DNA of 64,000 bases from Patescibacteria group bacterium (GTDB taxonomy: Bacteria > Patescibacteriota > Patescibacteriia > UBA1558 > GWA2-36-10). The notes under the pieces were generated by a model, which ran no database searches, was not told where the DNA came from, and saw only the letters and a list, made by a program, of their open reading frames with translations. The translations under genes were made by a program, and so were the position numbers. Positions 4,226 to 37,118 of this stretch are shown in pieces; within the stretch, counting starts at the first letter, position 1; each line of letters opens with the position of its first letter. The DNA lies in contig JBAYIR010000001.1 in NCBI GenBank assembly GCA_041665505.1, positions 83,108 through 147,107 on the forward strand, written 5' to 3'.

Positions 4226-4242
4226 AAATTAACAAATAATAT

Positions 4243-5805
4243 ATGTCAGATATAAATAAAAAAAATATGCCTTTGGCGCTTTTGATACTGGATGGTTGGG
4301 GTATTTGGAATAAAAAAGAAGGTAATGCCATAGCTCTAGCTCATACACCGGTTATAAATAATCTTTATGAAAAATATCCTAATACCTTACTACAGGCTTC
4401 GGAAAAATATGTTGGCTTACCAGCTAATCAGCCGGGTAATTCCGAGGCTGGGCATATGAATATTGGGGCGGGTCGAGTGATTGAGCAAGACGCGGTTATA
4501 ATTTCCAAGAGTATCAACAATGGCACTTTTTTTAAAAATCCAGCTTTTTTGCAAGCAGCTCATCACGTCAGTGAATATAATTCAGATGTCCATTTGATGG
4601 GGCTTTTGTCTGATGGTTCTAGCCCTCATTCGCACGATGATCATCTTTTATCATTGATTAGTTTTTTTCTTAGTCGGACCAAGCAAAATATTTATCTTCA
4701 TCTTTTTACAGATGGACGTGATTCGCCACCCTTTGCCGCTTTAAAAATTTTGAGTCAATATACTTCAATATTCAATAGCAATAGAGTAAAAATTGCTACT
4801 GTCATGGGGCGTTTTTATGCTATGGACAGAAAAAAATCTTGGCCTAGAACAAAATTAGCTTATGAGGCTTTGGTTATGGGGAAAGGTCATCAAGTTGAAA
4901 ATCCTATTGAAGCGGTAAATCAAGCTTATAATCGAGGGGAAAGTGATGAATATATTTTACCAACAGTCATAGTTGATAAAGATAAAAGTCCGATTGCTAC
5001 TATTAATAGTAATGATGCTTTAGTATTTTTTAATTTAAGATCAGATCGAGCTCGTCAATTGACCAAAATTTTTGGGCAAGAAGATTTTAACAAAAAAAAT
5101 CCAGGTTCATTTAAGTTGATCAAAAAAATTGAAAATTTATTATTTGTGGCTTTGACTGATTTTGGTCCAGATTTAGAAAGGGTGCTAACTGCTTATCCAG
5201 GTATTGATATTTCCGATACTTTACCCATGGCGCTTAAAGATATTAGACAGTGTTATATTGCGGAAACAGAAAAATATGCTCACGTTACTTATTTTTTTAA
5301 TGGTGGTTATGATCATCCAGTTGGTGGTGAAGATTGGGTCAATATTCCATCTAAAGATGTAGCTTCTTATGCCCAAAAACCAGAGATGAGTACTTTTGAA
5401 ATTGCGGAAGAGGTGATAAAATATGTTCAAGAGGATAAATACGATTTTATTATGGTCAATTTTGCTAGTCCAGATATGGTTGGACATACGGGAGATTTGG
5501 CAGCCGGAATAAAAGCAGTAGAATTTGTAGATAAGGCTGTCGGACAAATTATTGATGCTATTTTAGCTAAGCATGGTACTATAATTATTACTGCTGACCA
5601 TGGTAATGTGGAAGAAATGATTAACTTGGAGACCAAAGAAATTGATACTGAGCATTCCAAAAATCCAGTACCACTTATTATTGTTAGCCATGATAATTTT
5701 AAATTAGTGACTAATGGCCAATTAGCAAATATTGCTCCAACTATTTTAGATATTTTAGGCCTGCCTCAACCTAAATTAATGACTGATAAATCTTTAATTG
5801 TTTAA
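4243..5805 (+). CDS. gpmI: 2,3-bisphosphoglycerate-independent phosphoglycerate mutase (copy 1)
   Basis: 520 aa; LLILDGWG, AETEKYAHVTYFFNGG, SPDMVGHTG, ITADHGN motifs of iPGM. Confidence 0.9.
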   Translation: MSDINKKNMPLALLILDGWGIWNKKEGNAIALAHTPVINNLYEKYPNTLLQASEKYVGLPANQPGNSEAGHMNIGAGRVIEQDAVIISKSINNGTFFKNPAFLQAAHHVSEYNSDVHLMGLLSDGSSPHSHDDHLLSLISFFLSRTKQNIYLHLFTDGRDSPPFAALKILSQYTSIFNSNRVKIATVMGRFYAMDRKKSWPRTKLAYEALVMGKGHQVENPIEAVNQAYNRGESDEYILPTVIVDKDKSPIATINSNDALVFFNLRSDRARQLTKIFGQEDFNKKNPGSFKLIKKIENLLFVALTDFGPDLERVLTAYPGIDISDTLPMALKDIRQCYIAETEKYAHVTYFFNGGYDHPVGGEDWVNIPSKDVASYAQKPEMSTFEIAEEVIKYVQEDKYDFIMVNFASPDMVGHTGDLAAGIKAVEFVDKAVGQIIDAILAKHGTIIITADHGNVEEMINLETKEIDTEHSKNPVPLIIVSHDNFKLVTNGQLANIAPTILDILGLPQPKLMTDKSLIV

Positions 5806-5811
5806 AACAAA

Positions 5812-7389
5812 ATGAAAAGACCTCGACCAGTAGTGCTTGTTATATTAGATGGTTTTGGTATTGCGCCTCCTTCGAGAGCCAATGCTATTTCTTTGGCTAA
5901 AACCTCAAACTTTGATAAGTATTCTCAAAATTATCCAATTATGCCACTAGCAGCTAGTGGTGAAGCAGTCGGCCTTTCTTGGGGCGAAATGGGTAATTCT
6001 CAAGTTGGTCATCTTTCTTTGGGTTCTGGGCTAATTCCTTATCAAAATTTGCCTCGTATCACCAAAGCTATTACTGACGGAGAATTTTATAAAAATGAAG
6101 CTTTTCTTAAAGCTTGTGATAATGCTAAAAAAAGCGAAGCGGCTTTGCATATTATTGGTTTAGTCAGCTCCGGTGGAGTGCATAGCTACAATGAGCATTT
6201 GTATTCGCTGATAGAATTAGCTCACCAGCAAAAAGTGGAGAGAATTTTTATCCATGCTTTTTTAGATGGCAGGGATACCCCTTATAATAGTGGTATTAAT
6301 TTTATTAGTAAGTTGCAAGAAAAATTAAAAAATATAGGGACTGGTACTATTGCTAGTTTGAGTGGTCGTTTTTGGGCTATGGATAGAGATAATCGTTGGG
6401 ATAGGGTAGAGAAAGCTTGGCGAGCTATGGTAGACGGAGTATCTGATGAGAAATTTGAAGATCCTTTAGGAGCTATTCAAAAATCTTATGATAAAAAAGT
6501 ATATGATGAGGAATTTGTGCCAACAATAATATTGAATGATTTGGGTAAGCCCAAAGGTCTTATCAAAGATGGTGATAGCGTGATATTTTTTAACTTTAGA
6601 TCAGACAGGGCCAGGCAGCTTACTCAGGCTTTGACTTTACCAGGTTTTGAAAAATTCAAAAGACAGTATTTTAAAAATTTGGTGATGGTCACTATGACCG
6701 AATACGAAAAAGATTTGCCAGTGACAGTAGCCTTTCCACCTTTGGTCATTGAGATGCCTTTGGCTAGAGTTTTGTCTGAAGCAGGATTAAAACAACTTCA
6801 TATTGCGGAAACAGAAAAATATGCTCACGTTACTTACTTTTTTAACGGTGGTCAGGAAAAAATTTATGAAGGAGAGGATAGGGTACTAGTGCCTTCACCA
6901 CAAGTGGTCTCTTATGATCAAAAACCAGCTATGTCATCTAGAGAGCTTACTTCCAAGATAAATCAAGCAGTTAAAGAAGGGCAATATGATTTTATTGTAG
7001 CCAATTATGCCAGTCCAGATATGGTTGGACATACCGGCAATATCCAAGCGACTATAGAGGCTATAGAAATATTGGATCAACTAATTGGCGAATTAGTAGA
7101 TACAGTTTTGTCATACAATGGTTTGGTGCTTATTACCGCTGACCATGGTAATGCCGAAAATCTTTATGACTTGCAGAGTGGTGAGATAAACAAAGAGCAT
7201 TCCAATAATCCAGTACCATTTTTTATTATCGGTGATGATTTTGCTGGCAAGAGTGTCTTAGCTGGTAATGTCGGGACCGATCTCAGTCACGTTACACCAG
7301 TTGGTGTTTTAGCTGATGTGCCACCAACTATACTCAAAATTATGGGTATCAAAAAACCACCAGAAATGACCGGTAGTTCTTTGATTTAA
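5812..7389 (+). CDS. gpmI: 2,3-bisphosphoglycerate-independent phosphoglycerate mutase (divergent tandem paralog)
   Basis: 525 aa; VVLVILDGFG, identical AETEKYAHVTYFFNGG and SPDMVGHTG/ITADHGN motifs; otherwise diverged from copy 1. Confidence 0.9.
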   Translation: MKRPRPVVLVILDGFGIAPPSRANAISLAKTSNFDKYSQNYPIMPLAASGEAVGLSWGEMGNSQVGHLSLGSGLIPYQNLPRITKAITDGEFYKNEAFLKACDNAKKSEAALHIIGLVSSGGVHSYNEHLYSLIELAHQQKVERIFIHAFLDGRDTPYNSGINFISKLQEKLKNIGTGTIASLSGRFWAMDRDNRWDRVEKAWRAMVDGVSDEKFEDPLGAIQKSYDKKVYDEEFVPTIILNDLGKPKGLIKDGDSVIFFNFRSDRARQLTQALTLPGFEKFKRQYFKNLVMVTMTEYEKDLPVTVAFPPLVIEMPLARVLSEAGLKQLHIAETEKYAHVTYFFNGGQEKIYEGEDRVLVPSPQVVSYDQKPAMSSRELTSKINQAVKEGQYDFIVANYASPDMVGHTGNIQATIEAIEILDQLIGELVDTVLSYNGLVLITADHGNAENLYDLQSGEINKEHSNNPVPFFIIGDDFAGKSVLAGNVGTDLSHVTPVGVLADVPPTILKIMGIKKPPEMTGSSLI

Positions 7390-7391
7390 TT

Positions 7392-7826
7392 TTATAAACC
7401 GAGATTTATTAGTAGATAGCTAGTAACTATAGAGACTAAAAATCCTATTATTATTTCCATATTACTATGACCGAAACGTTCATTTAAAACAGGAAATTTG
7501 TATTCTTCTTTGTCTGGTAGTTTTTTAATGAGGTGATTGATGATAGCAGCTTGTTGGCCTAGTTTGCGTCTAATTCCAGCGGCATCTTTGACTATAACAA
7601 TAGCCATTATAAGCACAATAGCAAACTCTGGAGAATCCAAACCCCTAAAATAGCCCATAGTAATCAGCAGGGAAGTAGCCAAGGCAGTATGAGAAGATGG
7701 CATACCACCATAAGCAAAGATTTGAGACCAAGAAAACTGGCCTTTTATTAAGAAAATGATTACTTTTACGACTTGATTGATAAGTAAGGCTAGTATGGGG
7801 ATAAGAAAAAGTGTATATTCATTCAT
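7392..7826 (-). CDS. divergent PAP2-family (YuiD/DUF212-like) membrane phosphatase
   Basis: 144 aa, multi-TM, GGMPSSHTA motif reminiscent of PAP2 PSGH signature. Confidence 0.45.
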   Translation of the reverse strand: MNEYTLFLIPILALLINQVVKVIIFLIKGQFSWSQIFAYGGMPSSHTALATSLLITMGYFRGLDSPEFAIVLIMAIVIVKDAAGIRRKLGQQAAIINHLIKKLPDKEEYKFPVLNERFGHSNMEIIIGFLVSIVTSYLLINLGL

Positions 7827-7886
7827 ATTTGATTTTTTAAATAGATTATTGTAAAGTCATTATAACAGAAAAATAAAGTAATTAAA

Positions 7887-8633
7887 ATGGAACTAACAGA
7901 AGTATTAATATTGAGTCTCGTACAAGGAATAACTGAATGGTTGCCTATTTCTAGTGATGGCCATTTGTTTTTGTTTGAGCATTGGTTTGATATCAAAGAA
8001 GCTTCTTTGTCTTTTGATGTGTTTTTACATCTAGCATCTTTGGTAGTTATTTTATTTTTCTTCCGTCGGCAGATTATAGAAATAATCAGAGCACCTTTTG
8101 ATAAACAAGAGCATTCCAAAAAAAATTGGTGGTGGCTGATAGTTGTCTCCAATATTTTTACAGCTGGTATTGGTTATTTTTTGTATCAAAGGATGGATTC
8201 TTTCCGAAATATTAACTCAGTGACCGATTGGATGATTATTACTTCTATTTTTTTATTAGCTAGTAAGTTTACCAAAGGAGAAAAGACTATTGGTTGGAAG
8301 CAGGCAATTATCTTGGGTATAGTGCAAGGTCTGGCTGTTTTACCTGGCTGGTCTAGAAGTGGCAGTGTGATTGCCATGGCTTTGATTTTAAAAATAAAAA
8401 AGACTCAGGCTTTTGAATATGGTTTTATAATGGTTATTCCAGCGATAGTTGGCTCATTTATATTGACCGTCAAAGATTTTTCTTTTGAAGCAATTTATAT
8501 TTTGGCTTTTGTTGCTACGGCTATAATTAGTTATTTATCTTTAGCTTTATTAAAGTTTATTATGAAGCGAGATTATTTTTATTTATTTTTTATCTACACA
8601 TTGCTTTTATCTTTAATTGTAAAATTAACCTAA
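7887..8633 (+). CDS. uppP: undecaprenyl-diphosphate phosphatase
   Basis: 248 aa polytopic membrane protein; N-terminal GITEWLPISSDGHL matches UppP/BacA signature. Confidence 0.8.
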   Translation: MELTEVLILSLVQGITEWLPISSDGHLFLFEHWFDIKEASLSFDVFLHLASLVVILFFFRRQIIEIIRAPFDKQEHSKKNWWWLIVVSNIFTAGIGYFLYQRMDSFRNINSVTDWMIITSIFLLASKFTKGEKTIGWKQAIILGIVQGLAVLPGWSRSGSVIAMALILKIKKTQAFEYGFIMVIPAIVGSFILTVKDFSFEAIYILAFVATAIISYLSLALLKFIMKRDYFYLFFIYTLLLSLIVKLT

Positions 8634-9689
8634 ATGCTTTATCCAGTCATATTATCAGGGGGAGTAGGTCAGAGGCTCTGGCCAGTGTCTAATCAAAATG
8701 ATCCCAAGCAGTTTAAAGCTTTTTTGGATGATAAGACATTATTACAAAATACTTACAATCGTTTACTTAGAGCTTTTGATAAAGAAAGTATTTTTTTGGT
8801 TACTGGGCTAAGTGGCTTTGATAGCGTCAAAGCGCAATTAGATATAGCTGAAAAAAATATTTTTATTGAGCCAAGTGGCAAAGGCACAGCTATAGCTATT
8901 GCTTTAGCGGCACTACGTCTGCAAAATGTTGATCCCGAAGCTAGCATAGTTACTATTTGTACGGATCATTTTGTAAAAGAAGAAGACAAATATCTTAAAA
9001 TAATAAAAAAAGCTGGAGAGATGCTAGCCAAACATCCAGATAGATTAATTGTTTTGGGTATCAAACCCAGCTATCCCGAGACAGGCTACGGCTATATAGA
9101 ATTAGCTGATACTATAGCCAAAGATGTTTATAATGTGAAATCTCTTCAGGAAAAACCAGATTTAAATACCGCCAAAAAGTATTTGGAGGCTGGTAATTAT
9201 TTGTGGAGTTCTAGTGTTTTTGTTTTTAAAGCTAAACAATTATTGGATTGGTATCAGCAATTTTTACCTGACTTATATCAAGCACTGATGCAGATAAAAG
9301 CTGATGATTCTAGAGAGAATATGGCCAAAGTTTATTCTCAAATAAAAAATATTTCTATTGACTATGGTTTGTTGGAAAAATTGACCAATATGTTGTGTCT
9401 TCCAGCCGAGGTGACTTGGGCTGACATTGGTCATTGGCGCTCTCTAAGAGACGTCTTAAAAAAAGATAATTCCAATGTTTCTAATACCAAAAATTTAGTG
9501 ACTATTGATAGTCATAATAATTTGTTATATAGTTTTAATAATAAGAAATTAGTCACAGCAGTGGGAGTAGAAGATATGATATTAGTTGAGACAGATGAAG
9601 CAATATTGCTCTGTCCAGCTGATAGAGCCCAAGATATCAAAATTTTGCTGGAGGAAATAAAAAAACAGGGTTTTGATAAATATTTATGA
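8634..9689 (+). CDS. mannose-1-phosphate guanylyltransferase-like nucleotidyltransferase
   Basis: 351 aa; YPVILSGGVGQRLWPVS N-terminal nucleotidyl-transferase motif as in GDP-mannose pyrophosphorylase. Confidence 0.65.
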   Translation: MLYPVILSGGVGQRLWPVSNQNDPKQFKAFLDDKTLLQNTYNRLLRAFDKESIFLVTGLSGFDSVKAQLDIAEKNIFIEPSGKGTAIAIALAALRLQNVDPEASIVTICTDHFVKEEDKYLKIIKKAGEMLAKHPDRLIVLGIKPSYPETGYGYIELADTIAKDVYNVKSLQEKPDLNTAKKYLEAGNYLWSSSVFVFKAKQLLDWYQQFLPDLYQALMQIKADDSRENMAKVYSQIKNISIDYGLLEKLTNMLCLPAEVTWADIGHWRSLRDVLKKDNSNVSNTKNLVTIDSHNNLLYSFNNKKLVTAVGVEDMILVETDEAILLCPADRAQDIKILLEEIKKQGFDKYL

Positions 9690-10678
9690 AAAAATTTATT
9701 ATAAAATTAATAGTATTTTTTGGTCTAGCAGTAGCCTTTTGGTTTTTCATTTTGGTCATCAATGGCAACGGTTCAGATGAAAAAACTTTTGTGATTAGAG
9801 AAGGCCAAGGGGTCAACGAAATAAGCCAAGAGCTCTATGATGTCAATCTAATTAAAAATAAATTTGTTTTTGAAACTTGGTTGTGGCTCAAAAAATCAGA
9901 AGGCAAAATAATTGCTGGTGTTTATCAAATGCCAAAAGATATTTCTATTAGACATTTATCCAATTTATTGATGATTGGGCCAGGTCAGGCTCAATATGCT
10001 GTGACATTATTAGAAGGTTGGACTAGAGAATTGATGAAAGATACTTTAGAAGCAGCTGAAATTGATGCCGATAGATTTATTAAGTTGAGCTCTCAGGCTA
10101 GCGATTGGCAAGGTATTTATGATTTTTTAGCAGATGCACCAAGTGAGGCTAGTTTGGAAGGTTATATTTTTCCAGATACTTATTTTGTAGATAAAGCTAC
10201 TAGCGAAGAAGATTTAATCAAAAAAACTCTAAATAATTTTGATAGAAAATTAAATCAGGATTTTAGAGATGAAATAAAAAAGCAAGGTAAGACAATTTTT
10301 GAAGTAGTTACTTTGGCGGCTATTATAGAAAGAGAAGTCCCAAATAAAGAGGACAAAAAAATGATAGCTGATATTTTTCTCAAAAGATTAGTAGCGGGTA
10401 TTGGTCTACAATCTGATGCTACTGTCAATTATGTGACTGGTAAAGGTTTGGCTCAACCTAGCTATGATGATTTGCAAATTGATTCACCATACAATACTTA
10501 TAAATACCGTGGTTTGCCACCAGGGCCAATAGCCAATCCTGGTTTAGATAGTATAGAGGCAGTTATTTATCCCACTAAAAATGATTATTATTATTTTTTA
10601 ACTACTAAAGAAGGGGAAGTAATTTATAGTATAGATTATGAAGAACATTTAGATAATAAAGCTAAATATTTAGATTAA
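9686..10678 (+). CDS. mltG: endolytic murein transglycosylase MltG (YceG family)
   Basis: 330 aa; N-terminal TM, YKYRGLPPGPIANPG near C-terminus typical of YceG/MltG; 4-nt ATGA overlap with upstream gene. Confidence 0.75.
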   Translation: MKKFIIKLIVFFGLAVAFWFFILVINGNGSDEKTFVIREGQGVNEISQELYDVNLIKNKFVFETWLWLKKSEGKIIAGVYQMPKDISIRHLSNLLMIGPGQAQYAVTLLEGWTRELMKDTLEAAEIDADRFIKLSSQASDWQGIYDFLADAPSEASLEGYIFPDTYFVDKATSEEDLIKKTLNNFDRKLNQDFRDEIKKQGKTIFEVVTLAAIIEREVPNKEDKKMIADIFLKRLVAGIGLQSDATVNYVTGKGLAQPSYDDLQIDSPYNTYKYRGLPPGPIANPGLDSIEAVIYPTKNDYYYFLTTKEGEVIYSIDYEEHLDNKAKYLD

Positions 10679-10687
10679 TGTAATATA

Positions 10688-10728
10688 AAAACCTTTAATC
10701 TAGCTAGATTAAAGGTTTTTTTATTTTG
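10688..10728 (+). terminator. rho-independent terminator of mltG (AT-rich hairpin plus T-run)
   Basis: aaaccttta-atctagctagatt-aaaggttttttt seen directly after stop. Confidence 0.6.
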
Positions 10729-10768
10729 AGTAAAAAAATGAGGCGGGCACCTGTGGGGGTGCCCGCCT
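10729..10768 (-). terminator. GC-rich hairpin terminator of foreign ORF 10798..11991 (minus strand)
   Basis: aggcgggcacc-tgtgggg-gtgcccgcct palindrome preceded on plus strand by A7 (T-run on minus), ~30 nt downstream of the minus-strand stop. Confidence 0.6.
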
Positions 10769-10797
10769 TTGTGCGACCTGCGGTCGTACTGCGGATG

Positions 10798-11991
10798 TCA
10801 GTCTCCGTTGACCTCACCAATGATCCGGCGATGGTCACTGGTCTGAGCGACCAGTTTTCCGGCGACGATTGATATCGCCACCAGATCTCCCAGGAGAGTC
10901 ATGTCGAGCAGCTCCTGTGAGCCGTCCCGTCGCAGGAGTACCAGTCGGCTAGCCGACTGAACTCTGATCTCCCGGTACTGACCGGGCTCAGGGGCTATCT
11001 CAGCTACCGGCAGCGTCGGCTCTTGGTCGACGACCGGGGGCCAGATCTGCTGGTTGAGATCGACCGGGGGCCAGATCTGCTGGTCGACATCGACCGGGTC
11101 GATGTCCTGCCGAAGTCGGATTTCTCCGCCCTCGGAAGTGGTGGTTCGCGTACCAACTCGGACGTCGTTGCCACACCTCATCAGTGTGAGCGACGACGTG
11201 CCATCGGAAAGATAGCACCGCCAGGCCGGTTGCCAGTCGGGAATGTTCTTCTGCTGGCTTAGACCGCCAGCATAGCTCACCACCATGGGTCCACGTACGT
11301 CGACGGCCTCAATCCGGTCGATGCTCACTTGGCCGGGGAGCTTGGTTGATTCAGCGACCGTCATTGCGTTGCGCTCTACCTCGTACTGCCGAGCGAAGTG
11401 CTCAGCCGCTGTTTGGGCGGTTAGGATGCCGCCTGGCGCCTGATCTGGCCCCGAGTAGGGGTCAGCCATCTGTCGGAGGTAGCCTTCTTCGATCTCGTTT
11501 TGTCGACGATTGTCTTCCGCATCAGCATGCTGGGCCCTCTGGATGCCTTTACCTAGCAGGTAGGCCAGCGTAAACACCGCCATGATGACCGTGATGGCCA
11601 TCATCCAGCGTACCAAGGCGGGTGCCGTGGATCTTTCGGCCTGAGTCGTCGGCAGAGGAGATACAGTGGTGTCGGCCGGAATGGTCGGCACCATAGCATC
11701 GAGGCTAGCTCTTCGGAATTCGAAGAGGCGAACCAATGATGCTGGGATGATCAGCTTGTCACCAGGAATAATCATGTCCGGATCCGCCAGTTGCGGATTG
11801 GACTTGACCAACTCGGCCCACAAGCTCTTCTCTCCGAACGCCACTTGCCACTGACCGAGACGGTCAGCATCATCAACGATATACTCGCCGGATCCGTCGG
11901 CGAGCTTGTAAAGCCCACCTTCCGGAACCTGAGCACCGCAGATGCTGACGATGGTCAGTAGTAGCATGGCGCAGGACAGAATCCGTAGCAT
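10798..11991 (-). CDS. high-GC secreted/membrane protein: signal peptide, LysM-like motif, TM helix, C-terminal domain with tandem QQIWPPV repeat (foreign cassette A1)
   Basis: Start likely ATG 11991 (GGAGG at 12003..11999, 7-nt spacer), giving 398 aa, rather than the track start 12078. MLRILSCAMLLLTIVSICGAQ signal peptide; WAELVKSNPQLADPDMIIPGDKLIIP resembles LysM C-terminal half; hydrophobic LVRWMMAITVIMAVFTLAYLL. GC far above neighbours. Confidence 0.55.
   Translation of the reverse strand: MLRILSCAMLLLTIVSICGAQVPEGGLYKLADGSGEYIVDDADRLGQWQVAFGEKSLWAELVKSNPQLADPDMIIPGDKLIIPASLVRLFEFRRASLDAMVPTIPADTTVSPLPTTQAERSTAPALVRWMMAITVIMAVFTLAYLLGKGIQRAQHADAEDNRRQNEIEEGYLRQMADPYSGPDQAPGGILTAQTAAEHFARQYEVERNAMTVAESTKLPGQVSIDRIEAVDVRGPMVVSYAGGLSQQKNIPDWQPAWRCYLSDGTSSLTLMRCGNDVRVGTRTTTSEGGEIRLRQDIDPVDVDQQIWPPVDLNQQIWPPVVDQEPTLPVAEIAPEPGQYREIRVQSASRLVLLRRDGSQELLDMTLLGDLVAISIVAGKLVAQTSDHRRIIGEVNGD
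11039..11098. repeat. perfect-ish 30-bp tandem direct repeat inside cassette A1 (ggccagatctgctggt[t/c]ga[g/c]atcgaccggg x2)
   Basis: Seen directly; encodes VDVDQQIWPP / VDLNQQIWPP on minus strand. Confidence 0.7.
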
Positions 11992-12143
11992 AATGCTACC
12001 TCCAAAATGAATAGGGGAAACTTCAGTTACAGGGATCTGTAACCGGGAAGATTGAAATGTTTTTCGCTCTTCCCCCAAATACCCTATAGATACTTGGGGT
12101 AAAAGCGAATATTAACTTATAAATTGGCACTATACAATATATA

Positions 12144-12172
12144 ATTGTAACATATTTTTATAATTATGTCAA
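12144..12172 (-). promoter_or_regulatory. near-consensus sigma70 promoter TTGACA-17-TACAAT driving cassette A1 (minus)
   Basis: plus tgtcaa 12167-12172 and attgta 12144-12149, 17-nt spacer. Confidence 0.5.
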
Positions 12173-12203
12173 TACAATAAAATTGAGCTTAAGTTGTTTA
12201 TTA

Positions 12204-12232
12204 TTGACAATTATTATATTTTATGATATAAT
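12204..12232 (+). promoter_or_regulatory. perfect consensus sigma70 promoter TTGACA-17-TATAAT driving cassette A2
   Basis: ttgaca 12204-12209, tataat 12227-12232, spacer exactly 17; AGGAGG at ~12288 then ATG 12303. Confidence 0.6.
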
Positions 12233-12302
12233 ACTATATTGGTTCGAGAACTGAAGTCTGTAAACCTGGCCAAGAAATTGGCCTTACCAGGAGGAAAGAA
12301 TC

Positions 12303-13037
12303 ATGTTGTTTAACAAGAACACTTCCAAGAAGCTTGCTCAGGGTTTTCTGATTCTGATCGGGTCGTTGTTGATTCTGGCTGTCGTCATCGCCTTGGTCGG
12401 CGAGGCCAAGGCTGGTCCGATTCCGCGCTGGGATCACAACAGTGACATTGGTATCTGGAACGAGAGCACCCACCCGCCGCGGGCAGAGGTCAGACTCAAC
12501 CTGATCAACGCCCAATCCACTGGTGTGGAATCTCGTCTCCAAGGCGTCTGCTACGACCTCCTGGAGAAGAAGGACAAACCCTACTACCTGTACTTGGGCT
12601 TCGGCTTCCAGAGCGGACACCTGGACATCGAACCGGCTCTTGGCTGGTCCTTTCGCGACAATGAGTGGGTGGCGGCCTTTCGCACTTATCCCGAGTGGGA
12701 GAAGTGGCGGGGCTACTCCAACTGCGAGTATCAACTCGAGACCAAGAGCTGGTACTATTTGGCTCAAATCGAAACCCACTTCAACCACTGGGTAGAGTGT
12801 GGTGCCGAGATGGAGGGTTGGGGCGACATCGACGACCAGTTGACCAGCAATGGTGCTGGTATCAATGTTGTTTTCAACACCCATCCGCGGTGGGGCAATC
12901 CGGACTCAAAACTCCGGATAGAAGCTGGCCTTCAGCTCCGAGAGATGGACTCGAAGTACAAACCGCAGCTCATCGTTCGATTCATATTTAGCCCGGAGAT
13001 GGAGGAGCACACGCCAGATCCTAGGAGGTGGAGATGA
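12303..13037 (+). CDS. high-GC hypothetical protein, N-terminal TM/signal anchor, Trp/Gly/Tyr-rich beta-type domain (foreign cassette A2)
   Basis: 244 aa; LAQGFLILIGSLLILAVVIALVG hydrophobic N-terminus; strong SD; first ~10 codons AT-richer than remainder; no family recognised. Confidence 0.55.
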   Translation: MLFNKNTSKKLAQGFLILIGSLLILAVVIALVGEAKAGPIPRWDHNSDIGIWNESTHPPRAEVRLNLINAQSTGVESRLQGVCYDLLEKKDKPYYLYLGFGFQSGHLDIEPALGWSFRDNEWVAAFRTYPEWEKWRGYSNCEYQLETKSWYYLAQIETHFNHWVECGAEMEGWGDIDDQLTSNGAGINVVFNTHPRWGNPDSKLRIEAGLQLREMDSKYKPQLIVRFIFSPEMEEHTPDPRRWR

Positions 13038-13042
13038 CATTT

Positions 13043-13088
13043 GGCCCGCCGCGTGCAACAGCATGCGGCGGGCCTCAACTTTTGTCTT
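13043..13088 (+). terminator. GC-rich hairpin terminator of cassette A2
   Basis: ggcccgccgc-gtgcaacagcat-gcggcgggcc followed by tcaacttttgtctt. Confidence 0.55.
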
Positions 13089-13229
13089 AGTTATAACAGG
13101 ATTGACAATATTTTATTTTTACTATATAATAATCACATAAATTCCTAGAAGGGCTAGGAAGTAAATAATTAAATAGCCAAAGACAGTAGGTTTCTAGCTA
13201 ATATTAGCCAAGAATTAAATATCCTGCCG

Positions 13230-13295
13230 AGGTAGAAAATTTTAAGTTTTTCAACTGTCTGCGCTATTTACGCAGATTTTTTTAATAAAAAATAT
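13230..13295 (+). promoter_or_regulatory. candidate rplJ (L10) leader with attenuator-like hairpin
   Basis: tctgcg-ctattta-cgcaga hairpin plus T7 run ending ~13289 just before rplJ ATG; L10 leaders are autoregulatory in many bacteria (established knowledge), identity here is inference. Confidence 0.3.
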
Positions 13296-23075: not shown

Positions 23076-23150
23076 GGCCCCATCGTCTAACGGTTAGGAC
23101 GTCAGGTTCTCAACCTGGCAATCAGGGTTCGATTCCCTGTGGGGTCACCA
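23076..23150 (+). tRNA. tRNA-Glu (anticodon CTC), CCA encoded
   Basis: Cloverleaf folded by hand: acceptor GGCCCCA/TGGGGTC, D-loop AACGGTTA, anticodon loop TTCTCAA, T-loop TTCGATT. Confidence 0.75.
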
Positions 23151-23151
23151 A

Positions 23152-23228
23152 GGGCATGTAGCTCAGTTGGTTAGAGCACTACATTCACATTGTAGGGGTC
23201 GAAGGTTCGAATCCCTCCATGCCCACCA
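23152..23228 (+). tRNA. tRNA-Val (anticodon CAC), CCA encoded
   Basis: Acceptor GGGCATG/CATGCCC, anticodon stem CTACA/TGTAG with loop TTCACAT, T-loop TTCGAAT. Confidence 0.75.
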
Positions 23229-23383: not shown

Positions 23384-23430
23384 TTTTGTTGAAAAAAGAA
23401 GGCCGCCGCCACGTCAGACGTGGCGGCGGC
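23384..23430 (-). terminator. GC-rich palindromic terminator of cassette B1
   Basis: gccgccgccacg-tcaga-cgtggcggcggc 12-bp stem; A-run on plus (T-run on minus) at 23391-23397. Confidence 0.6.
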
Positions 23431-23445
23431 ATGAAGCGATATGAC

Positions 23446-24111
23446 CTAGCCGAGGTCGGCTTGGTCGAGGAGGCTCTTCTCGTATCTCTCGGCCACTTCG
23501 AGCTGATGCATCAGCCCATCGATGGCCATCTGGATGAGGTCTTCCCGGCAGGTCGGGACAGCTACAAAGCGTCTAGCCGCTTTGTCAGTTGGGAACATCA
23601 CAACCATCCACCAGCCTGCGGTAATTCCGCCGATTCCTTTGACCTTGCTACCGTAGGTGGTTGCCTTACCATCGACGATATCGTCGGGATTCTCCAAGCC
23701 GTAGCCATGGAAGCAGCGATAGTCGGGACCATGACGCTTGAATCGCAGGACCGCCACGACGGGTATTCTCACGTATTGATGGTACGTGGCAGCAGAGCAG
23801 CTGGTCGCCCTGACGATCTCGTTGTAGAACCCATCTTTGCGCTGAATTCTGATCAGCTGGTCAGAGAGGTCTCCCAGGACCGTCTTGATCTCCGAGCTGT
23901 CTGCAATCGGCCGTGCTATGACCGTGGTGGCCTGGGGGTTGACCTTGATGTCCAGCAGTGCAAAGCCGGCTTTTGCCAAGCTGATGGGGGACTCCGGATC
24001 GAGGGTGCCAGTAGCTACATCGTCTCTACCGATTCCCCAACGAAAACAATGATTGCCGTCGAGCCGTACCACACCAGTGGTGTAGATGGGGTCACAATTT
24101 TGTGCCTGCAT
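23446..24111 (-). CDS. high-GC hypothetical cytoplasmic protein (foreign cassette B1)
   Basis: Preferred start ATG 24111 with GGAGG(24123..24119)-7 nt-ATG, giving 221 aa; track start 24147 lacks SD. Natural-looking composition, unlike the plus-strand antisense ORF 23386..24153. No family recognised. Confidence 0.5.
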   Translation of the reverse strand: MQAQNCDPIYTTGVVRLDGNHCFRWGIGRDDVATGTLDPESPISLAKAGFALLDIKVNPQATTVIARPIADSSEIKTVLGDLSDQLIRIQRKDGFYNEIVRATSCSAATYHQYVRIPVVAVLRFKRHGPDYRCFHGYGLENPDDIVDGKATTYGSKVKGIGGITAGWWMVVMFPTDKAARRFVAVPTCREDLIQMAIDGLMHQLEVAERYEKSLLDQADLG

Positions 24112-24193
24112 TGGGAATCCTCCAGATTTAGTTGCATTTGTCTGCATTTATGATGCCTGCTGGCACCATTGTTCCTAGAGTTAGGAACAAAGT

Positions 24194-24235: not shown

Positions 24236-24278
24236 TAAAGAAAATTAAGACCGCCGCGCATCCAGGGACGCGCGGCGG
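24236..24278 (-). terminator. GC-rich hairpin terminator of cassette B2
   Basis: ccgccgcgc-atccagggac-gcgcggcgg 9-bp stem, A/T-rich tract on minus side after hairpin. Confidence 0.55.
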
Positions 24279-24290
24279 CTACGGAGGATA

Positions 24291-24791
24291 CTACGGAAGT
24301 ATCTTCCAGACGGTAGGATTTCTTTTCCGGAAACTCTTGATGCTCTGCTCTCGGTGCATATTTTTGGCCAACACTACGGCCAAGATCAGAAGCATCAGAG
24401 CCATGAGGCTCTTGAACAGAGCCAAAATCCCTTGACCTAAAGGAGCGTGGATGGTGTGGACGGACATCGTCGCAACCAGTTTGTCTCCTTTGGTCTCGTA
24501 GACCATGAACTGGTACTGACCGAAGACGATCAGTGCTTCTTCGCCACTTTTGATGGTGGCGAGGTGCCGGCTGTTCTTGATGACCTTGAAGTAACACTCC
24601 TTGGAGTCGATGGTGACCAGCGCATGTTCGCTAATCTTGAAATCGACACTGTCGCCGTCCCGAAGGACAGCTCCAGTCACAGGAATCCGGTCATTCTCCG
24701 AACGAATATGGAGCTCGATAGCTCCTTCGCTCGCACGGACGACGGTGGTGGCACAGATCAGAATGGCGATGGTCAGAAGAAGAGTCTTCAT
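24291..24791 (-). CDS. high-GC secreted protein with N-terminal signal peptide and C-terminal TM anchor (foreign cassette B2)
   Basis: 166 aa; MKTLLLTIAILICATTVVRASEG signal peptide; C-terminal LMALMLLILAVVLA hydrophobic helix; AAAGGA SD 8 nt before ATG. Confidence 0.5.
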   Translation of the reverse strand: MKTLLLTIAILICATTVVRASEGAIELHIRSENDRIPVTGAVLRDGDSVDFKISEHALVTIDSKECYFKVIKNSRHLATIKSGEEALIVFGQYQFMVYETKGDKLVATMSVHTIHAPLGQGILALFKSLMALMLLILAVVLAKNMHREQSIKSFRKRNPTVWKILP

Positions 24792-24894
24792 GTCGCGAGT
24801 CCTTTCGCTTGCAGTTTCAGGTTCCTTCCCTCTTTATTTTAAAGGCTTTTGAGCCTTTTGTGACGTCAATGAGCTTGCTTTAAGCAATTATCTA

Positions 24895-32907: not shown

Positions 32908-33663
32908 ATGGAAAGTTTATTTATAAAAAATAGAAAAGGTCAAAATATTTCAGTTGATTTGAGCAGAAGTGCTAATCAAAAAGCTTTGGCTTTTGTCATG
33001 CCTGGTTTAGGAAATATAAAAGAAGAAATTCACATTCAAACTTTTGTAGAAAGTTTTTTGACTAAGGATTTTACAGTTGTGACTTTTGATGTGACAAATG
33101 GCGTAGGCCAGAGCGATGGTGATTATAGTCAAGCTACTTTCACTGGTTATTATAATGATTTAGTTGATGTTATAACTTGGGCCAAGTCACAAGATTGGTA
33201 TCAGGAGCCTTTTGTTTTGCTAGGACATAGTATGGGTGGCGGTTGTATTTTACGTTACGCCGCTGATCAGCCAAAAAAAGTATTTGGCTTAGCACCAATT
33301 TCTACTGTGATTGGTGGTCATCAGACTTTGGCCAAATTTGGTCGAGATGACTTACCAGCTACTAAGATAGAAAAAGGGAAAAAAATAATTAAAAAAATAG
33401 ACTGGGAGCCATTTGAAAAAGATATCTTACAATATGATATAGTGCCAGAAGCTCACAAGTTTGTGATGCCGGTTTTGATGATGGTAGGAGAAAATGATAG
33501 AGGCACGCCTTTGGAAGACCAAATTAAACTTTATGAAGGTCTGCCTGGTGATAAAGAAATTCATGTTATAAAAAATGCCCCACACACTTTTGTAGAGGCC
33601 AAGCATTTAGCAGAAATAAAAGAAATTTTTCATAATTGGATAGATACTAAGATATTAAAATAA
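32908..33663 (+). CDS. alpha/beta-fold hydrolase (esterase/dienelactone-hydrolase-like)
   Basis: 251 aa; nucleophile elbow LLGHSMGGG; C-terminal His region. Confidence 0.55.
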   Translation: MESLFIKNRKGQNISVDLSRSANQKALAFVMPGLGNIKEEIHIQTFVESFLTKDFTVVTFDVTNGVGQSDGDYSQATFTGYYNDLVDVITWAKSQDWYQEPFVLLGHSMGGGCILRYAADQPKKVFGLAPISTVIGGHQTLAKFGRDDLPATKIEKGKKIIKKIDWEPFEKDILQYDIVPEAHKFVMPVLMMVGENDRGTPLEDQIKLYEGLPGDKEIHVIKNAPHTFVEAKHLAEIKEIFHNWIDTKILK

Positions 33664-33685
33664 TAATTATATTTTTATAGCTCTC

Positions 33686-33730
33686 AATATACAGTGAGGG
33701 CTATTTTTGTTTTGTTTATTTTTTTAAGAT
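33686..33730 (+). terminator. rho-independent terminator after hydrolase gene
   Basis: gctctca-atataca-gtgagggc stem (one G.U) followed by long T-rich run. Confidence 0.45.
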
Positions 33731-33890
33731 AAATATATTTGATTCAGCCATTCGCGAAGGGCTGGATTGACAAAATGGGGTTTTTGTGTTAAAAATTATA
33801 GTTATTCGCGATTCATAGGCTTTGGGCTTATGGGTCACTGTTCCCCAGGCAAGTTGAAGCACCCCGAACCGAACATGGAGGTTTTAAGTC

Positions 33891-34613
33891 ATGACTCGCA
33901 AGCCCGTGATTCAAACAGCTCTCGAAAGCCTTGACCGTCAGATTGATGACAGAGTGGTCATCGACATTGACGGCGATGTGGATGAGGCCCAGCACATGCT
34001 TTACGCGTTTCGCACTTCGGTGGAAGAGGTGATCTTCGAAGGAGACAACACCGAAGAGTGTCGTCGGCAGTGCCTGGCCAACCTGACCAAGGTCGGCTAC
34101 CTGGAAGAGGCCATCAAGGAGTTGATGACTTTCTCCAAGCGGAGTCGGCGAGCGGTTCGTCGGTGGCTCTATGGGGAAGTTGTTCCTCAGCGAGTTGATT
34201 GGCTGCGGTGGCAGTACTGGCTTCGCGCCAAGGGGTACTACACGCGCGAGCTTGACCACATGCCCAACAGCTTCTTCCAGTTGCGCAAGCACATCCTCTG
34301 TGGCGATATCAGCTTCGCGGTTGCCGCCAAGGAGCTTGGTTGCACTCAGAAGGTTCTTCGGGGCATTCTGAACAATGAGGTGGACAGAGCTGTGATCATC
34401 AGTATCATCGGCAATGTCCACCATCTGGTGGCCAAGATCAACCGGCAGATCAGCCATCGGGAGATTGTCGGTTACATGGAGGTCTATTTGGATTCCGACG
34501 GCGAGTTTGCCGAAGTGAATCGGCGCTACAACCTGGACAACCAGAAGCGTCGTCGTAAGGTGGCTCACAAAGCTGCCAAGGCTCGCCGCAAGGCCAGGTC
34601 TTCCAAGAGCTAG
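33891..34613 (+). CDS. high-GC hypothetical protein with strongly basic C-terminal tail (foreign cassette C)
   Basis: 240 aa; GGAGG 9 nt upstream of ATG; C-terminus KRRRKVAHKAAKARRKARSSKS suggests nucleic-acid binding; TTGACA at 33767 with weak TAAAAA -10 at 17 nt; GC-rich hairpin 34638-34670 downstream. Opposite-strand ORF 33828..34568 judged antisense artefact. Confidence 0.5.
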   Translation: MTRKPVIQTALESLDRQIDDRVVIDIDGDVDEAQHMLYAFRTSVEEVIFEGDNTEECRRQCLANLTKVGYLEEAIKELMTFSKRSRRAVRRWLYGEVVPQRVDWLRWQYWLRAKGYYTRELDHMPNSFFQLRKHILCGDISFAVAAKELGCTQKVLRGILNNEVDRAVIISIIGNVHHLVAKINRQISHREIVGYMEVYLDSDGEFAEVNRRYNLDNQKRRRKVAHKAAKARRKARSSKS

Positions 34614-34760
34614 GCCACCACGGCCAGCGGCTAGATTTACCCCGGACTGCGTCCAAGCAGCCCGGGGTAAAAAATTGTAAAAATTAAGGCAAAATTAGCC
34701 AGAATTATTAAGTTATGATATTATATATCAACAAATACACCTTAAATCAGGCTTTAGATT

Positions 34761-37118
34761 ATGAAGTATAATTTTCAAGACAGAGAAAAATATTGGAGAG
34801 AATTTTGGGATAATAAAGAAATTTATAAATTTGACTCAAGCAGTCAAAAGCCTTTTTATTTGGTAGATACTCCGCCACCTTATGTTTCGGCTGATCATCT
34901 CCATGTTGGACATATCATGAGCTATTCTCAAGCGGAATTTATAGTGCGCTACAAAAGAATGCGTGGCTATGAAGTTTTTTATCCAATGGGTTTTGATGAC
35001 AATGGTTTACCAACTGAAAGATTTGTAGAGAAAAAATATAAAATAAATAAAAATGAAATCAGCCGAAGTGATTTTATAAAAAAATGTCTGGAAGAAACAA
35101 AGATTGGCTCGCAGACTTATAAAAATCTGTGGCAGGAAATGGGTATTTCTATTGATTGGTCCAAAACTTATAGCACCATCAATGAACATAGCCAAAGAGT
35201 ATCACAGTGGTCATTTATTGATTTGTATAAAAAGGGAAAGATGACCAGAAAAGATGAGCCTTCTTATTGGTGTACAACTTGTCAGACAGCGGTAGCTCAA
35301 GCCGATTTGGAAGACAAAGAAGAGGATAGCTTTTTAAATTATATTAATTTTAAATCAGCCGATTCTGATAAAAATTATTTGATATCTACATCTCGACCAG
35401 AATTACTAGCAGCTTGCGTAGCACTCTTTGTCAATCCAGAAGATAAGAGATATCAAGATGTTATTGGTAGAAAAGCTATAGTACCTATATTTGATTATGA
35501 AGTACCAATTTTAAGTGACGAAGATGTAGATATTGATTTTGGTACTGGTATGATGATGGTTTGTACTTGGGGAGATGGCGAAGATGTCAAAAAATCCAAA
35601 AAACATAATCTAGAAATTAGATCAATTTTACAAAAAAATGGCCGTTTGAATGAACTAGCTGGTGAATTTGCTAATTATAAAATTAAAGAGGCCCGTCAAG
35701 AAATTATTGAAAAATTAAAAGCCAGTGGGCATTTGCAAAAACAAGAAAGTATTAATCATGTTTTAAATGTTCATGAGAGATGTTCTACACCAGTAGAGTT
35801 GATAAAAGCTAAACAGTGGTTTATTAATGTTTTAGAGTCTAAAGAAGAGCTCATCAAACAAGCGGATAAAATGAATTGGTATCCAGAGTTTATGAAGCAG
35901 CGGTATATTGACTGGGTGCAAGCTTTAAAATGGGACTGGTGTATTTCTAGACAGAGATACTATGGTGTGCCTTTTCCAATTTGGTATTGTCAAAAATGTG
36001 GAGAAGTGATTTTGCCCAAAGAAGAATCTTTGCCAGTTGATCCGATAAATTCACAGCCAGATATCAGTAGCTGTCCCAAATGTGGTGCTCATGATTTTGT
36101 GCCAGAAAACGATGTCATGGACACTTGGATGACTTCTTCTTGCACTCCGATTATCATTTCCAAATTGTTTGCTGATAAAAAAATTCAAGACAAATTGTAT
36201 CCTAGCAGTCTTAGACCGCAAGCTTTTGAGATTATTCGGACTTGGTTGTTTTATACGGTAGTCAAATCTTTTTATCATTTTAATGATGTGCCTTTCAAAG
36301 ATATTATGATTTCTGGTCATGGTTTGGATGATAGCGGACAAAAAATTTCCAAGCGTTTGGGAAATTTTGTACCACCAGAAAAAATTATAGAACGTTATGG
36401 AGCTGATTCTCTAAGATATTGGGCTACCGGGGCCAATTTGGGAGAAAATTTGAGATACAATGAAGATGAAGTAAAAAAAGGCAATCGGACCATCACCAAA
36501 TTACACAATGCTTCAGAGTTTTGTTTTAGCCATTTCAAAGGAGAGGATTATTCTCAGATTAAAATAGAAAATTTAGAGCCAGCCGATAAATGGATTTTGC
36601 ATTATTTGAATGAGACATTAACTAAAGTTACAGAGCATTTTGATGCTTATCAATATGCCAAAGCTAAAGGGGAGATAGACAATTTTTTCTGGGCTTATTT
36701 TTGTGATAATTATTTGGAATTTATCAAACATAGACTCTACAGAGAAGAGTCAGATCAAGTAGCTAAAAGTGTTTTATATCAGGTCATGCTGGGTATTATA
36801 AAAATGTATGCTCCAATCATGCCTTATATTACTGAAGAAATTTATCATTCATATTTTGATAAATTTGAAAAAGATATTAGTATTCACTTATCTAAATGGC
36901 CAGAAGTGATTAAAAAGCTTAATTTTTCACAGGCTGAATTGGATGAATTTAGCCAGGCCGTTGAGCTGATTAAGGAAATTAGAAAATTTAAATCAGCCAA
37001 TCAATTTTCTTTGGCAGTAGAATTGGATGATTTTCAAAGTCCAATCGCGATTTCAGAAAAGCATAGGGAATTTGTCTCTTTAGTTGGCCGAGTAAAGAAT
37101 ATAATAATTAAAAGCTAG
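34761..37118 (+). CDS. valS: class I aminoacyl-tRNA synthetase, most likely valyl-tRNA synthetase (compact form)
   Basis: 785 aa; PPPYVSADHLHVGH HIGH region like ValRS PPPNVTGxLHMGH; TSRPELLAACVALFVNPEDKRY like ValRS editing-domain TTRPET...NPEDERY; DWCISRQRYYGVP; KISKRLGN KMSKS motif. Lacks long C-terminal coiled coil. Leu/Ile family not fully excluded. Confidence 0.55.
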   Translation: MKYNFQDREKYWREFWDNKEIYKFDSSSQKPFYLVDTPPPYVSADHLHVGHIMSYSQAEFIVRYKRMRGYEVFYPMGFDDNGLPTERFVEKKYKINKNEISRSDFIKKCLEETKIGSQTYKNLWQEMGISIDWSKTYSTINEHSQRVSQWSFIDLYKKGKMTRKDEPSYWCTTCQTAVAQADLEDKEEDSFLNYINFKSADSDKNYLISTSRPELLAACVALFVNPEDKRYQDVIGRKAIVPIFDYEVPILSDEDVDIDFGTGMMMVCTWGDGEDVKKSKKHNLEIRSILQKNGRLNELAGEFANYKIKEARQEIIEKLKASGHLQKQESINHVLNVHERCSTPVELIKAKQWFINVLESKEELIKQADKMNWYPEFMKQRYIDWVQALKWDWCISRQRYYGVPFPIWYCQKCGEVILPKEESLPVDPINSQPDISSCPKCGAHDFVPENDVMDTWMTSSCTPIIISKLFADKKIQDKLYPSSLRPQAFEIIRTWLFYTVVKSFYHFNDVPFKDIMISGHGLDDSGQKISKRLGNFVPPEKIIERYGADSLRYWATGANLGENLRYNEDEVKKGNRTITKLHNASEFCFSHFKGEDYSQIKIENLEPADKWILHYLNETLTKVTEHFDAYQYAKAKGEIDNFFWAYFCDNYLEFIKHRLYREESDQVAKSVLYQVMLGIIKMYAPIMPYITEEIYHSYFDKFEKDISIHLSKWPEVIKKLNFSQAELDEFSQAVELIKEIRKFKSANQFSLAVELDDFQSPIAISEKHREFVSLVGRVKNIIIKS

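Follow-up and report, generated by a model that had tools for sequence, protein, structure and literature searches.

A persistently GC-rich gene native to a Patescibacteria lineage encodes a probable double helix-turn-helix DNA-binding protein

The window analysed here is a stretch of 64,000 nucleotides of contig JBAYIR010000001.1 (positions 83,108 to 147,107 of the forward strand; GenBank assembly GCA_041665505.1), which derives from a Patescibacteria metagenome-assembled genome (MAG). Its GC content is about 34%, and composition profiles reveal sharp GC-rich blocks of 50-66% GC at 10700-12080, 12300-13100, 23390-24150, 24240-24800 and 33820-34660. The last of these blocks, hereafter island C, is the subject of this report. 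When an AT-rich genome contains a GC-rich patch, the usual interpretation is recent transfer or a structured RNA; for island C, neither interpretation holds. On its left, the island C unit is bounded by the canonical intrinsic terminator of an upstream alpha/beta-hydrolase gene (33677-33714, +), which was identified by a terminator scan. The unit itself would comprise a sigma-70-type promoter with an extended -10 element (33767-33795, +), an ~88-nt 5' untranslated region (UTR) that opens with a small stem-loop, a strong Shine-Dalgarno sequence, an open reading frame (ORF) for 240 amino acids (33891-34613, +) and a terminator hairpin. The encoded protein is 100% identical to P0001, NCBI entry WCV71_00645 from a Patescibacteria group bacterium, which is annotated as a hypothetical protein and encoded on a contig of 350,638 bp. 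An initial annotation of the window had described this ORF and its high GC content, its GGAGG Shine-Dalgarno sequence, a TTGACA-17-TAAAAA promoter and a basic C-terminal tail, and all of these were found as described.

The island C ORF is protein-coding. When it was compared with the orthologs P0002, P0003 and P0004 (81%, 65% and 51% identity, respectively), substitutions were most frequent at the third codon position, followed by the first and then the second (for example 0.35, 0.15 and 0.12 at positions 3, 1 and 2). The ratio of nonsynonymous to synonymous substitution (dN/dS) is 0.11-0.25 in these comparisons, with a proportion of synonymous differences (pS) of 0.45-0.78, which is saturating.

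The family to which the protein belongs is rare. A search of 5.8 billion proteins returned only four clusters and an exhaustive profile search of 1.84 billion representatives returned 17; in neither collection was a copy of more than ~30% identity found outside one chromosomal slot of the candidate phyla radiation (CPR). Comparison of the contigs that carry the tail-bearing relatives P0002, P0003, P0004, P0006, P0008, P0009 and P0011 defined this slot, as far as the contigs reach, as a divergent argS, a P-type cation ATPase, usually an alpha/beta hydrolase, the island C gene, tRNA-Asn and an ABC transporter. The order ATPase(-hydrolase)-island C recurs in loci L001, L002, L009, L011, L014 and L021, and part of the neighbourhood is present on the short L005 contigs. 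Seven further ortholog types thus occupy the same slot in Komeilibacteria-like Patescibacteria, one of the syntenic loci being from a named Candidatus Komeilibacteria MAG, and scans of metagenome and genome contigs recovered only ortholog types that were already known. The gene is therefore syntenic, apparently vertically inherited and native to this Patescibacteria lineage; the slot has been occupied since before these genomes diverged, and the gene is not recently acquired. The framing of the gene in the initial annotation as an island or cassette, which implies foreign DNA, is thus not borne out. Judged by the refuting condition that the annotation had set, a match to a common native CPR family, the gene is native to the CPR but, with 17 clusters among 1.84 billion representatives, far from common. 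The 3' side of the slot differs between lineages. In the sub-lineage of the window (the window and L005-L007), island C is followed by valS (34761-37118, +, in the window) in place of tRNA-Asn, whereas L001, L002, L009, L011 and L014 have tRNA-Asn with its own TTGACA promoter and then the ABC transporter, which indicates a local rearrangement at the 3' boundary of the island. Downstream of tRNA-Asn in L014 (GCA_028718865.1) lies a GC-richer stretch of ~45-60% GC (6900-12615), which has the appearance of an element integrated at the tRNA; among its genes are ones for an HTH_17 protein and an SLFN_AlbA_2/HATPase_c_4 protein.

The composition of the island C gene is far from that of its surroundings. 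The gene has a GC content of 55.7%, with values of 0.60, 0.37 and 0.71 at codon positions 1, 2 and 3, whereas the third-position GC content (GC3) of the neighbouring genes is 0.24-0.27. Its codon choice inverts the native one: AAG makes up 93% of lysine codons rather than 17%, NNC codons far exceed NNT codons, and A occupies 0.06 of third positions rather than 0.31. The same pattern is observed across the orthologs, where GC3 in eight ortholog types is 0.71, 0.69, 0.63, 0.61, 0.71, 0.64, 0.59 and 0.70 (range 0.58-0.71) and that of their flanking genes is 0.24-0.44. Since synonymous sites are saturated between orthologs, this shared GC-richness is not inherited sequence. On our preferred reading, a GC3 of ~0.6-0.7 in genomes of GC3 ~0.25 is actively maintained and is no fading trace of a foreign origin. 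The protein also evolves fast and out of step with its neighbours. Between the window and L001, L002 and L009, the flanking ATPase is 72-75% identical, whereas the island C protein is 51%, 65% and 27% identical, respectively; the discrepancy is largest for L009 (72% for the ATPase).

The protein was modelled with AlphaFold2 from a 17-sequence alignment, giving a predicted local distance difference test score (pLDDT) of 78.6, with residues 45-190 above 88. Apart from two short strands, the model is all-helical and consists of two helix-turn-helix (HTH) units, a long helix and a helical basic tail, preceded by an acidic N-terminus that is modelled at low confidence (residues 14-43, pLDDT < 50). 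The predicted HTH domain 1 spans approximately residues 54-113 (34050-34229, +; pLDDT > 90) and includes RSRRAVRRWLYGEVVPQR and an invariant aromatic helix, DWLRWQYWLRAKGY; the family profile and matches to the Pfam family HTH_3 point to the same region. The predicted HTH domain 2 (approximately residues 126-160; 34266-34370, +; pLDDT 87-95) includes GDISFAVAAKELGCTQKVLRGILNNE and is likewise indicated by the profile and by Pfam matches. It is followed by a predicted long helix of residues 166-199 (34386-34487, +; pLDDT ~88-95 up to residue 190), which may serve as a dimerisation or coiled-coil element. The chain ends in KRRRKVAHKAAKARRKARSSKS, and direct translation places the polybasic tail at residues 217-240, QKRRRKVAHKAAKARRKARSSKS (34539-34610, +), with similar tails in P0002, P0005, P0006, P0008, P0009 and P0011. 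This tail is conserved: it is kept in slot-confirmed orthologs of only 24-27% identity (P0006, P0008, P0009 and P0011), the partial relative P0005 has it too, and its recurrence in these proteins marks it as a selected feature.

Three sub-threshold lines of evidence, from the model, Pfam and the PDB, agree on two tandem HTH domains of the Cro/cI type. When the family profile was compared with PDB sequences, the best match was the N-terminal domain of lambda cI on domain 2 (E 0.07), and helices 2-3 of P22 C2 matched domain 1 (E 0.08; ...GVSrravrrWlsgevlPkGenLlrl aligned with GVSNVAISQWERSETEPNGENLLAL). Below the Pfam thresholds, HTH_3 matches domain 1 of P0015 (21.5 bits, the cut-off being 23) and of P0009, and HTH_26, HTH_31 and Xre-like-HTH match the equivalent of domain 2 in P0010; the HTH matches in other family members have E values of 0.0014 to 0.02, none of them at the gathering score. 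The structure prediction that the initial annotation had proposed as a check gave Foldseek lists that, with no match at significance, consist mostly of Cro/cI/XRE proteins: C.BclI, HipB, XRE regulators, C.AhdI, lambda cI, 434 Cro, SinR, Aca1 and phage repressors. We infer that the core of the protein consists of two tandem Cro/cI (XRE)-type HTH domains joined by the invariant aromatic helix, which makes DNA binding likely. As in the Cro/cI repressors (P22 C2 and lambda cI; HTH_3, PF01381, clan CL0123), each predicted domain shows an HTH followed by a glycine, then a proline and then a leucine-rich helix. Nevertheless, there are clear differences from these repressors, since island C would have two domains per chain, an invariant Trp/Tyr-rich linking helix, a long helix and a polybasic tail, lies outside any prophage context, and matches them neither at significance nor at a Pfam gathering score.

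Our preferred reading, to which we give somewhat better than even credence, is that island C is a native single-gene unit encoding a sequence-specific DNA-binding transcription regulator, the GC content of which is actively maintained. Such a regulatory role is the most likely one. The protein would belong to a rare family with a double Cro/cI-type HTH core, to which the CPR branch adds the long helix and the polybasic tail; bases would be read by the HTH domains, with the basic tail supplying non-specific affinity for the DNA backbone. Nucleic-acid binding, which the initial annotation had suggested from the tail, is thus likely, although the principal evidence for it comes from the two predicted HTH domains rather than from the tail alone. 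Several observations weigh against this reading. No HTH assignment is significant or reaches a curated threshold; the window protein itself matches no Pfam family even at E <= 1, and nothing usable was found for it in PHROGs, NCBIfam or PADLOC. The best Foldseek E values are 0.8 against the PDB and 0.12 against the viral models of BFVD, and a first AlphaFold2 model built from four sequences was too poor to use (pLDDT 52.8). Furthermore, the island C promoter is no more conserved than that of rplU, leaving autoregulation without support, and the hairpin that follows the gene in the window lacks a proper U-tract, so that termination there is deduced from positional homology only.

Among the alternatives, the one that survives best is that the protein is mainly architectural, nucleoid-associated or RNA-binding, being abundant and binding non-specifically through its polybasic tail in the manner of a histone or ribosomal protein, along the lines of the initial annotation; we consider this unlikely. 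The retention of the tail across such diverged orthologs fits this idea, as do the net positive charge of the protein (R+K 17.9% versus D+E 13.7%), the separation of an acidic, low-confidence N-terminus from a basic C-terminus, and the combination of a consensus -35 hexamer, an extended -10 element and an invariant GGAGG, which together suggest good expression. However, conservation and model confidence are both highest in the double-HTH core and not in the tail, which is missing from the family members outside the CPR. In addition, nucleoid proteins usually evolve slowly, whereas the island C protein diverges far faster than its neighbours.

The family members outside the CPR, P0010 and P0012-P0020, match the CPR profile in the double-HTH core with E values of 2.8e-7 to 9e-4, which indicates homology there, and have the motifs W..G...P.G..L.R..YFL...GY...EL in common with the CPR branch. 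They differ from it in that most have a C-terminal ...LCSEKAR domain and no basic tail, and some are internally duplicated, at 380-407 amino acids. Three of the non-CPR loci were examined (P0017, P0010 and P0020), and in all three the gene overlaps the start of a downstream gene for a HATPase_c_3 (GHKL) ATPase. The loci with these sacsin/MORC-like ATPases are L008 (1239-2942), L020 (1348-2241) and L023 (1712-2071). The conserved HTH-GHKL two-gene module corresponds to no curated family, and its ATPase gives only weak TmtA-like matches in PADLOC. A published pairing of a kinase and a repressor, CapK and CapS, was considered as an analogue and rejected owing to its different architecture: as described, CapS is a STAS-domain protein and CapK an anti-sigma-type kinase (PMC13373217). 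No HATPase_c_3 gene lies beside the island C gene in any CPR locus, adjacency being what was scanned in the window; the CPR form thus has the appearance of a derivative of the HTH + GHKL two-gene module that has come to stand alone.

This family history bears on a further possibility, which we regard as slightly less probable again than an architectural role, namely that island C survives from a conflict system as its specificity component, resembling an immunity repressor, an antitoxin or a controller, with divergent alleles kept at one locus by diversifying or balancing selection. The divergence of the protein in L001, L002 and L009, which is not tracked by that of the ATPase, would fit such a history, as would the translational coupling of the gene to a GHKL HATPase_c_3 (a recurrent domain of defence systems) in each of the three non-CPR relatives examined. 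The structural neighbours of the model also include controllers of restriction-modification (R-M) systems, HipB and HigA antitoxins, phage repressors and Aca1. The C.BclI and C.AhdI controllers and the HipB and HigA antitoxins occupy Foldseek PDB ranks 1-4, 6 and 11 and resemble island C as small HTH proteins behind a promoter of their own, but these matches have E >= 0.8, and the proteins are ~70-100 amino acids long with one domain, whereas the island C protein has 240 amino acids and two predicted domains. Moreover, no CPR locus has an adjacent toxin, R-M, phage or ATPase partner, the neighbours being the P-type ATPase, the hydrolase, valS or tRNA-Asn and the ABC transporter; no PADLOC match was obtained; and the dN/dS values among close orthologs indicate purifying selection.

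It is very improbable that island C is a recent foreign cassette from a GC-rich donor, the composition of which has not yet reached that of the host. The gap in GC3 from its neighbours and the inverted codon usage are what such a cassette would show, and the distant family members P0017 and P0010 do reside in GC-rich genomes. There the genes fit the composition of their own genomes, with GC3 values of 0.74 and 0.78 against 0.82-0.87 in their neighbours (0.85 and 0.87 in the genes that follow them directly); P0020 is on a mid-GC contig, where its GC3 is 0.60 and that of the following gene is 0.57. In the CPR, at least seven diverged genomes have an ortholog in the same slot, preceded by the same promoter, and the closest copies beyond the slot in either protein search stay below ~30% identity. 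The gene is present in the slot of all related genomes recovered, and its GC3 is flat whatever the divergence, although the synonymous sites are saturated. A substitution model of decay with native third-position frequencies requires an ancestral GC3 of ~0.85-0.9 for the closest pair and of ~1.0 for the split between the window and L001, and the deeper orthologs cannot be fitted at all. Plain decay of a foreign gene towards the host composition thus cannot explain the pattern, and the simple form of this reading is already refuted.

An ORF of 246 amino acids lies antisense to the island C gene (33828-34568, -), in codon-for-codon complement with the sense frame. It is full-length in the window, L005 and L002 and is interrupted by one to four stop codons in five orthologs (L001, L009, L011, L014 and L021). 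All that keeps this frame open is the absence of TTA, CTA and TCA codons from the sense gene; it was rejected as a gene, being a by-product of codon usage that is broken in the five orthologs. Long antisense ORFs are also found on other islands of the window, at 23386-24153 (+, 255 amino acids) and 12234-12884 (-, 216 amino acids); the origin in missing TTA, CTA and TCA codons has been established only for that of island C. Such ORFs could lead gene callers to annotate the wrong strand. In the region 33600-34800, no Rfam family reaches the gathering score, and the sole match at E <= 1 is a chance match of a miRNA model to the 3' hairpin (20.7 bits against a gathering score of 94). That the block is a structured non-coding RNA, or the antisense gene, with the 240-amino-acid ORF incidental, can be set aside almost completely: a GC-rich island in an AT-rich genome classically signals a structured RNA and the antisense frame is intact in three loci, but the codon-position substitutions and dN/dS fit the sense frame and thereby refute this reading, the antisense frame is broken elsewhere and explained by codon usage, and Rfam offers no credible match.

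Several candidate causes of differing probability could maintain the GC content of island C. The leading one, which we put forward tentatively, is that selection acts on the composition of the transcripts, at the nucleotide or mRNA level. Purely translational selection on codons is argued against by the 5' UTRs, which are also GC-enriched: those of the orthologs are 64-88 nt long with a GC content of 0.38-0.50, compared with 0.14-0.39 upstream of the -35 hexamer. GC-biased gene conversion at hypervariable, recombining loci is a somewhat weaker candidate, repeated replacement from an unsampled GC-rich pool is unlikely, and some other cause is less likely still. Parsimony polarisation of third-position changes gave 19 weak-to-strong and 23 strong-to-weak changes, with little power since the outgroups are near saturation. 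We found no published description of maintained GC-rich genes in the CPR. The nearest precedent seen is that of the 'large G+C-rich genes' (lgr) of Protochlamydia amoebophila (PMC2216083), which are likewise coding genes of standout G+C content in the genome of a symbiotic bacterium. As described there, the lgr genes are paralogs of 5.6 kb with leucine-rich repeats, of which one resides on a conjugative island (PMC2216083), whereas the island genes of Patescibacteria are short, unrelated, single-copy and held in fixed slots between housekeeping genes.

The promoter of island C was read directly from the sequence and is a unique match in the window. It consists of a TTGACA hexamer (33767-33772), a 17-nt spacer and the -10 hexamer TAAAAA (33790-33795), preceded by a TGn extended -10 motif (TGT, 33787-33789) that the initial annotation had missed. 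The pattern TTGACAA...T.TG.TAA is invariant across seven orthologous loci. Such conservation is not peculiar to island C: comparison of the window with L001 shows the rplU promoter to be conserved to the same degree. For the same reason, an autoregulatory operator formed by the inverted repeat ACAAAA-N6-TTTTGT and the conserved spacer was dropped as a candidate: the rplU spacer is as conserved, and the repeat degrades in L011 and L014.

The transcription start deduced from the position of the -10 hexamer gives a putative 5' UTR at 33802-33890 (+; ~88 nt, GC 0.50). The initial annotation had described a structured leader with hairpins, which does not hold: the folding energy of 33800-33900 is -24.2 kcal/mol, and shuffled sequences average -25.2 kcal/mol (z = +0.29), and no consensus structure is predicted across the orthologs. 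The leader has no Rfam match either, and the UTR sequence is unalignable outside the closest orthologs; a structured RNA or riboswitch in the leader was rejected on these grounds. Two copies of ATTCGCGA, also reported in the initial annotation, are indeed present at 33750-33757 and 33804-33811 and are the only two in the window. However, at least two copies occur in 15 of 100 shuffles, and the repeat is absent from all orthologs compared, so it was rejected as a regulatory motif. A small 5'-proximal stem-loop, CATAGGC-TTTGG-GCTTATG (33814-33832, +), is paired in all sequences that cover it. Its 7 bp (33814-33820 with 33826-33832) recur only in the nearest orthologs, with one compensatory and three one-sided changes, a score that is not significant (reached in 86 of 500 shuffles). 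Distant orthologs and other island genes also carry a 5' UTR hairpin of unrelated sequence, and the stem-loop is possibly a generic stabiliser of the 5' end of the mRNA. The Shine-Dalgarno sequence GGAGG (33877-33881, +) lies 9 nt upstream of the ATG, within an ACAYGGAGGT motif that is invariant in the ortholog alignment.

Directly 3' of the stop codon is a terminator-type hairpin, TTTACCCCGGaCTGC-gtccaa-GCAGcCCGGGGTAAA (34636-34671, +), with a degenerate U-tract and followed by AAAAAATTGT. It is unique in the window and folds at -25.2 kcal/mol (z = -6.4), a value matched by none of 200 shuffles. The hairpin is conserved, with compensatory changes at three of its 15 pairs (four orthologs). L009, L011 and L014 have a hairpin at the equivalent position followed by a T-run, which makes it a canonical terminator there, whereas an A-run follows the stem in the window, L005, L002, L001 and L021, with the T-tract either displaced or eroded. 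Like intrinsic terminators, it is a stable GC-rich stem-loop; unlike them, its stem is extended by flanking T and A bases, leaving no free U-tail. The simple terminator scan did not call it in the window, where AAAAAATTGT stands after the stem in place of a U-tract. The hairpin followed by an A-run that the initial annotation had noted is present, but the suggestion that it acts on the opposite strand is not supported, since both strands read T-run, stem, A-run; roles as an opposite-strand terminator or, given the single copy in the window, as a repeated element were both rejected. We therefore read the hairpin as the terminator stem of the island C gene itself with a degenerate U-tract, and it is possibly leaky in the lineage of the window.

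The remaining GC-rich blocks hold four further genes. Island A1 (10798-12078, -) encodes 426 amino acids, has a transmembrane segment and gives a weak LysM-like match, and island A2 (12303-13037, +) encodes 244 amino acids with an N-terminal hydrophobic segment; both lie between yceG and the L10 leader/rplJ. The Komeilibacteria MAG L024 carries orthologs of A1 and A2 in the same slot (5001-6341 and 3909-4607), with 46% and 58% identity, respectively, to those of the window, compared with 78-81% for the flanks, and with GC3 values of 0.62 and 0.57, compared with 0.18-0.23 for the flanks. A1 and A2 thus behave like island C in being GC-rich and fast-evolving in a conserved slot. Islands B1 (23446-24147, -) and B2 (24291-24791, -) lie upstream of rplU. 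In L001, the rplU slot holds a different GC-rich gene (577-1020, -; GC3 0.56) for a protein of 147 amino acids, which has a signal-like hydrophobic segment at its N-terminus and shows no detectable similarity to either B1 or B2; the slot is thus conserved with variable content that is GC-rich in both genomes compared. All five island genes have native-style consensus promoters and hairpin terminators. A promoter or UTR motif common to islands A, B and C was sought and rejected, the only one found being the generic ATTGACAA, which native promoters have too.

Two observations were made beside these islands. Directly next to island B, the window encodes tRNA-Glu(CTC) and tRNA-Val(CAC) (23076-23228, +), which read GAG and GUG. 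In native genes these codons make up 28% and 22% of their codon families, respectively, compared with 67% for GAG across the islands and 48% for GUG in island C; the two tRNAs may be retained to serve the GC-rich genes, or their presence may be a coincidence. Immediately after the A2 terminator is a ribosomal protein L10 leader (13159-13291, +; Rfam RF00557, 59.7 bits), which indicates that native cis-regulatory RNAs are detectable in this genome.

A broader proposition, on which we are evenly divided, is that Komeilibacteria-like Patescibacteria carry a class of fast-evolving, lineage-specific genes in fixed slots, with GC3 values of ~0.6-0.7 against a chromosomal ~0.2-0.3. Ortholog comparison places island C, A1 and A2 in this class, A1 and A2 as membrane or secreted proteins, and composition only places B1 and B2 there. 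The island C protein is in itself fairly ordinary, and what merits follow-up is the combination of lasting GC-richness and fast evolution of island C, A1 and A2 in conserved slots. With the predicted tandem Cro/cI-type HTH proteins, an uncharacterised family nevertheless joins the candidate regulators known from Patescibacteria, which are few, and the relatives outside the CPR draw attention to an HTH protein paired with a GHKL ATPase, an unstudied combination. Were the class real, these accessory genes would be GC-richer than the core genome, reversing the usual rule, and a locus-specific force would be needed, such as selection on transcript composition (for example resistance to AU-targeting RNases, or rare-codon control) or GC-biased gene conversion. 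Composition-based calls of horizontal transfer in CPR genomes would in that case be misleading, and these loci would lend themselves naturally to telling selection on mRNA or nucleotide composition apart from GC-biased gene conversion in bacteria.

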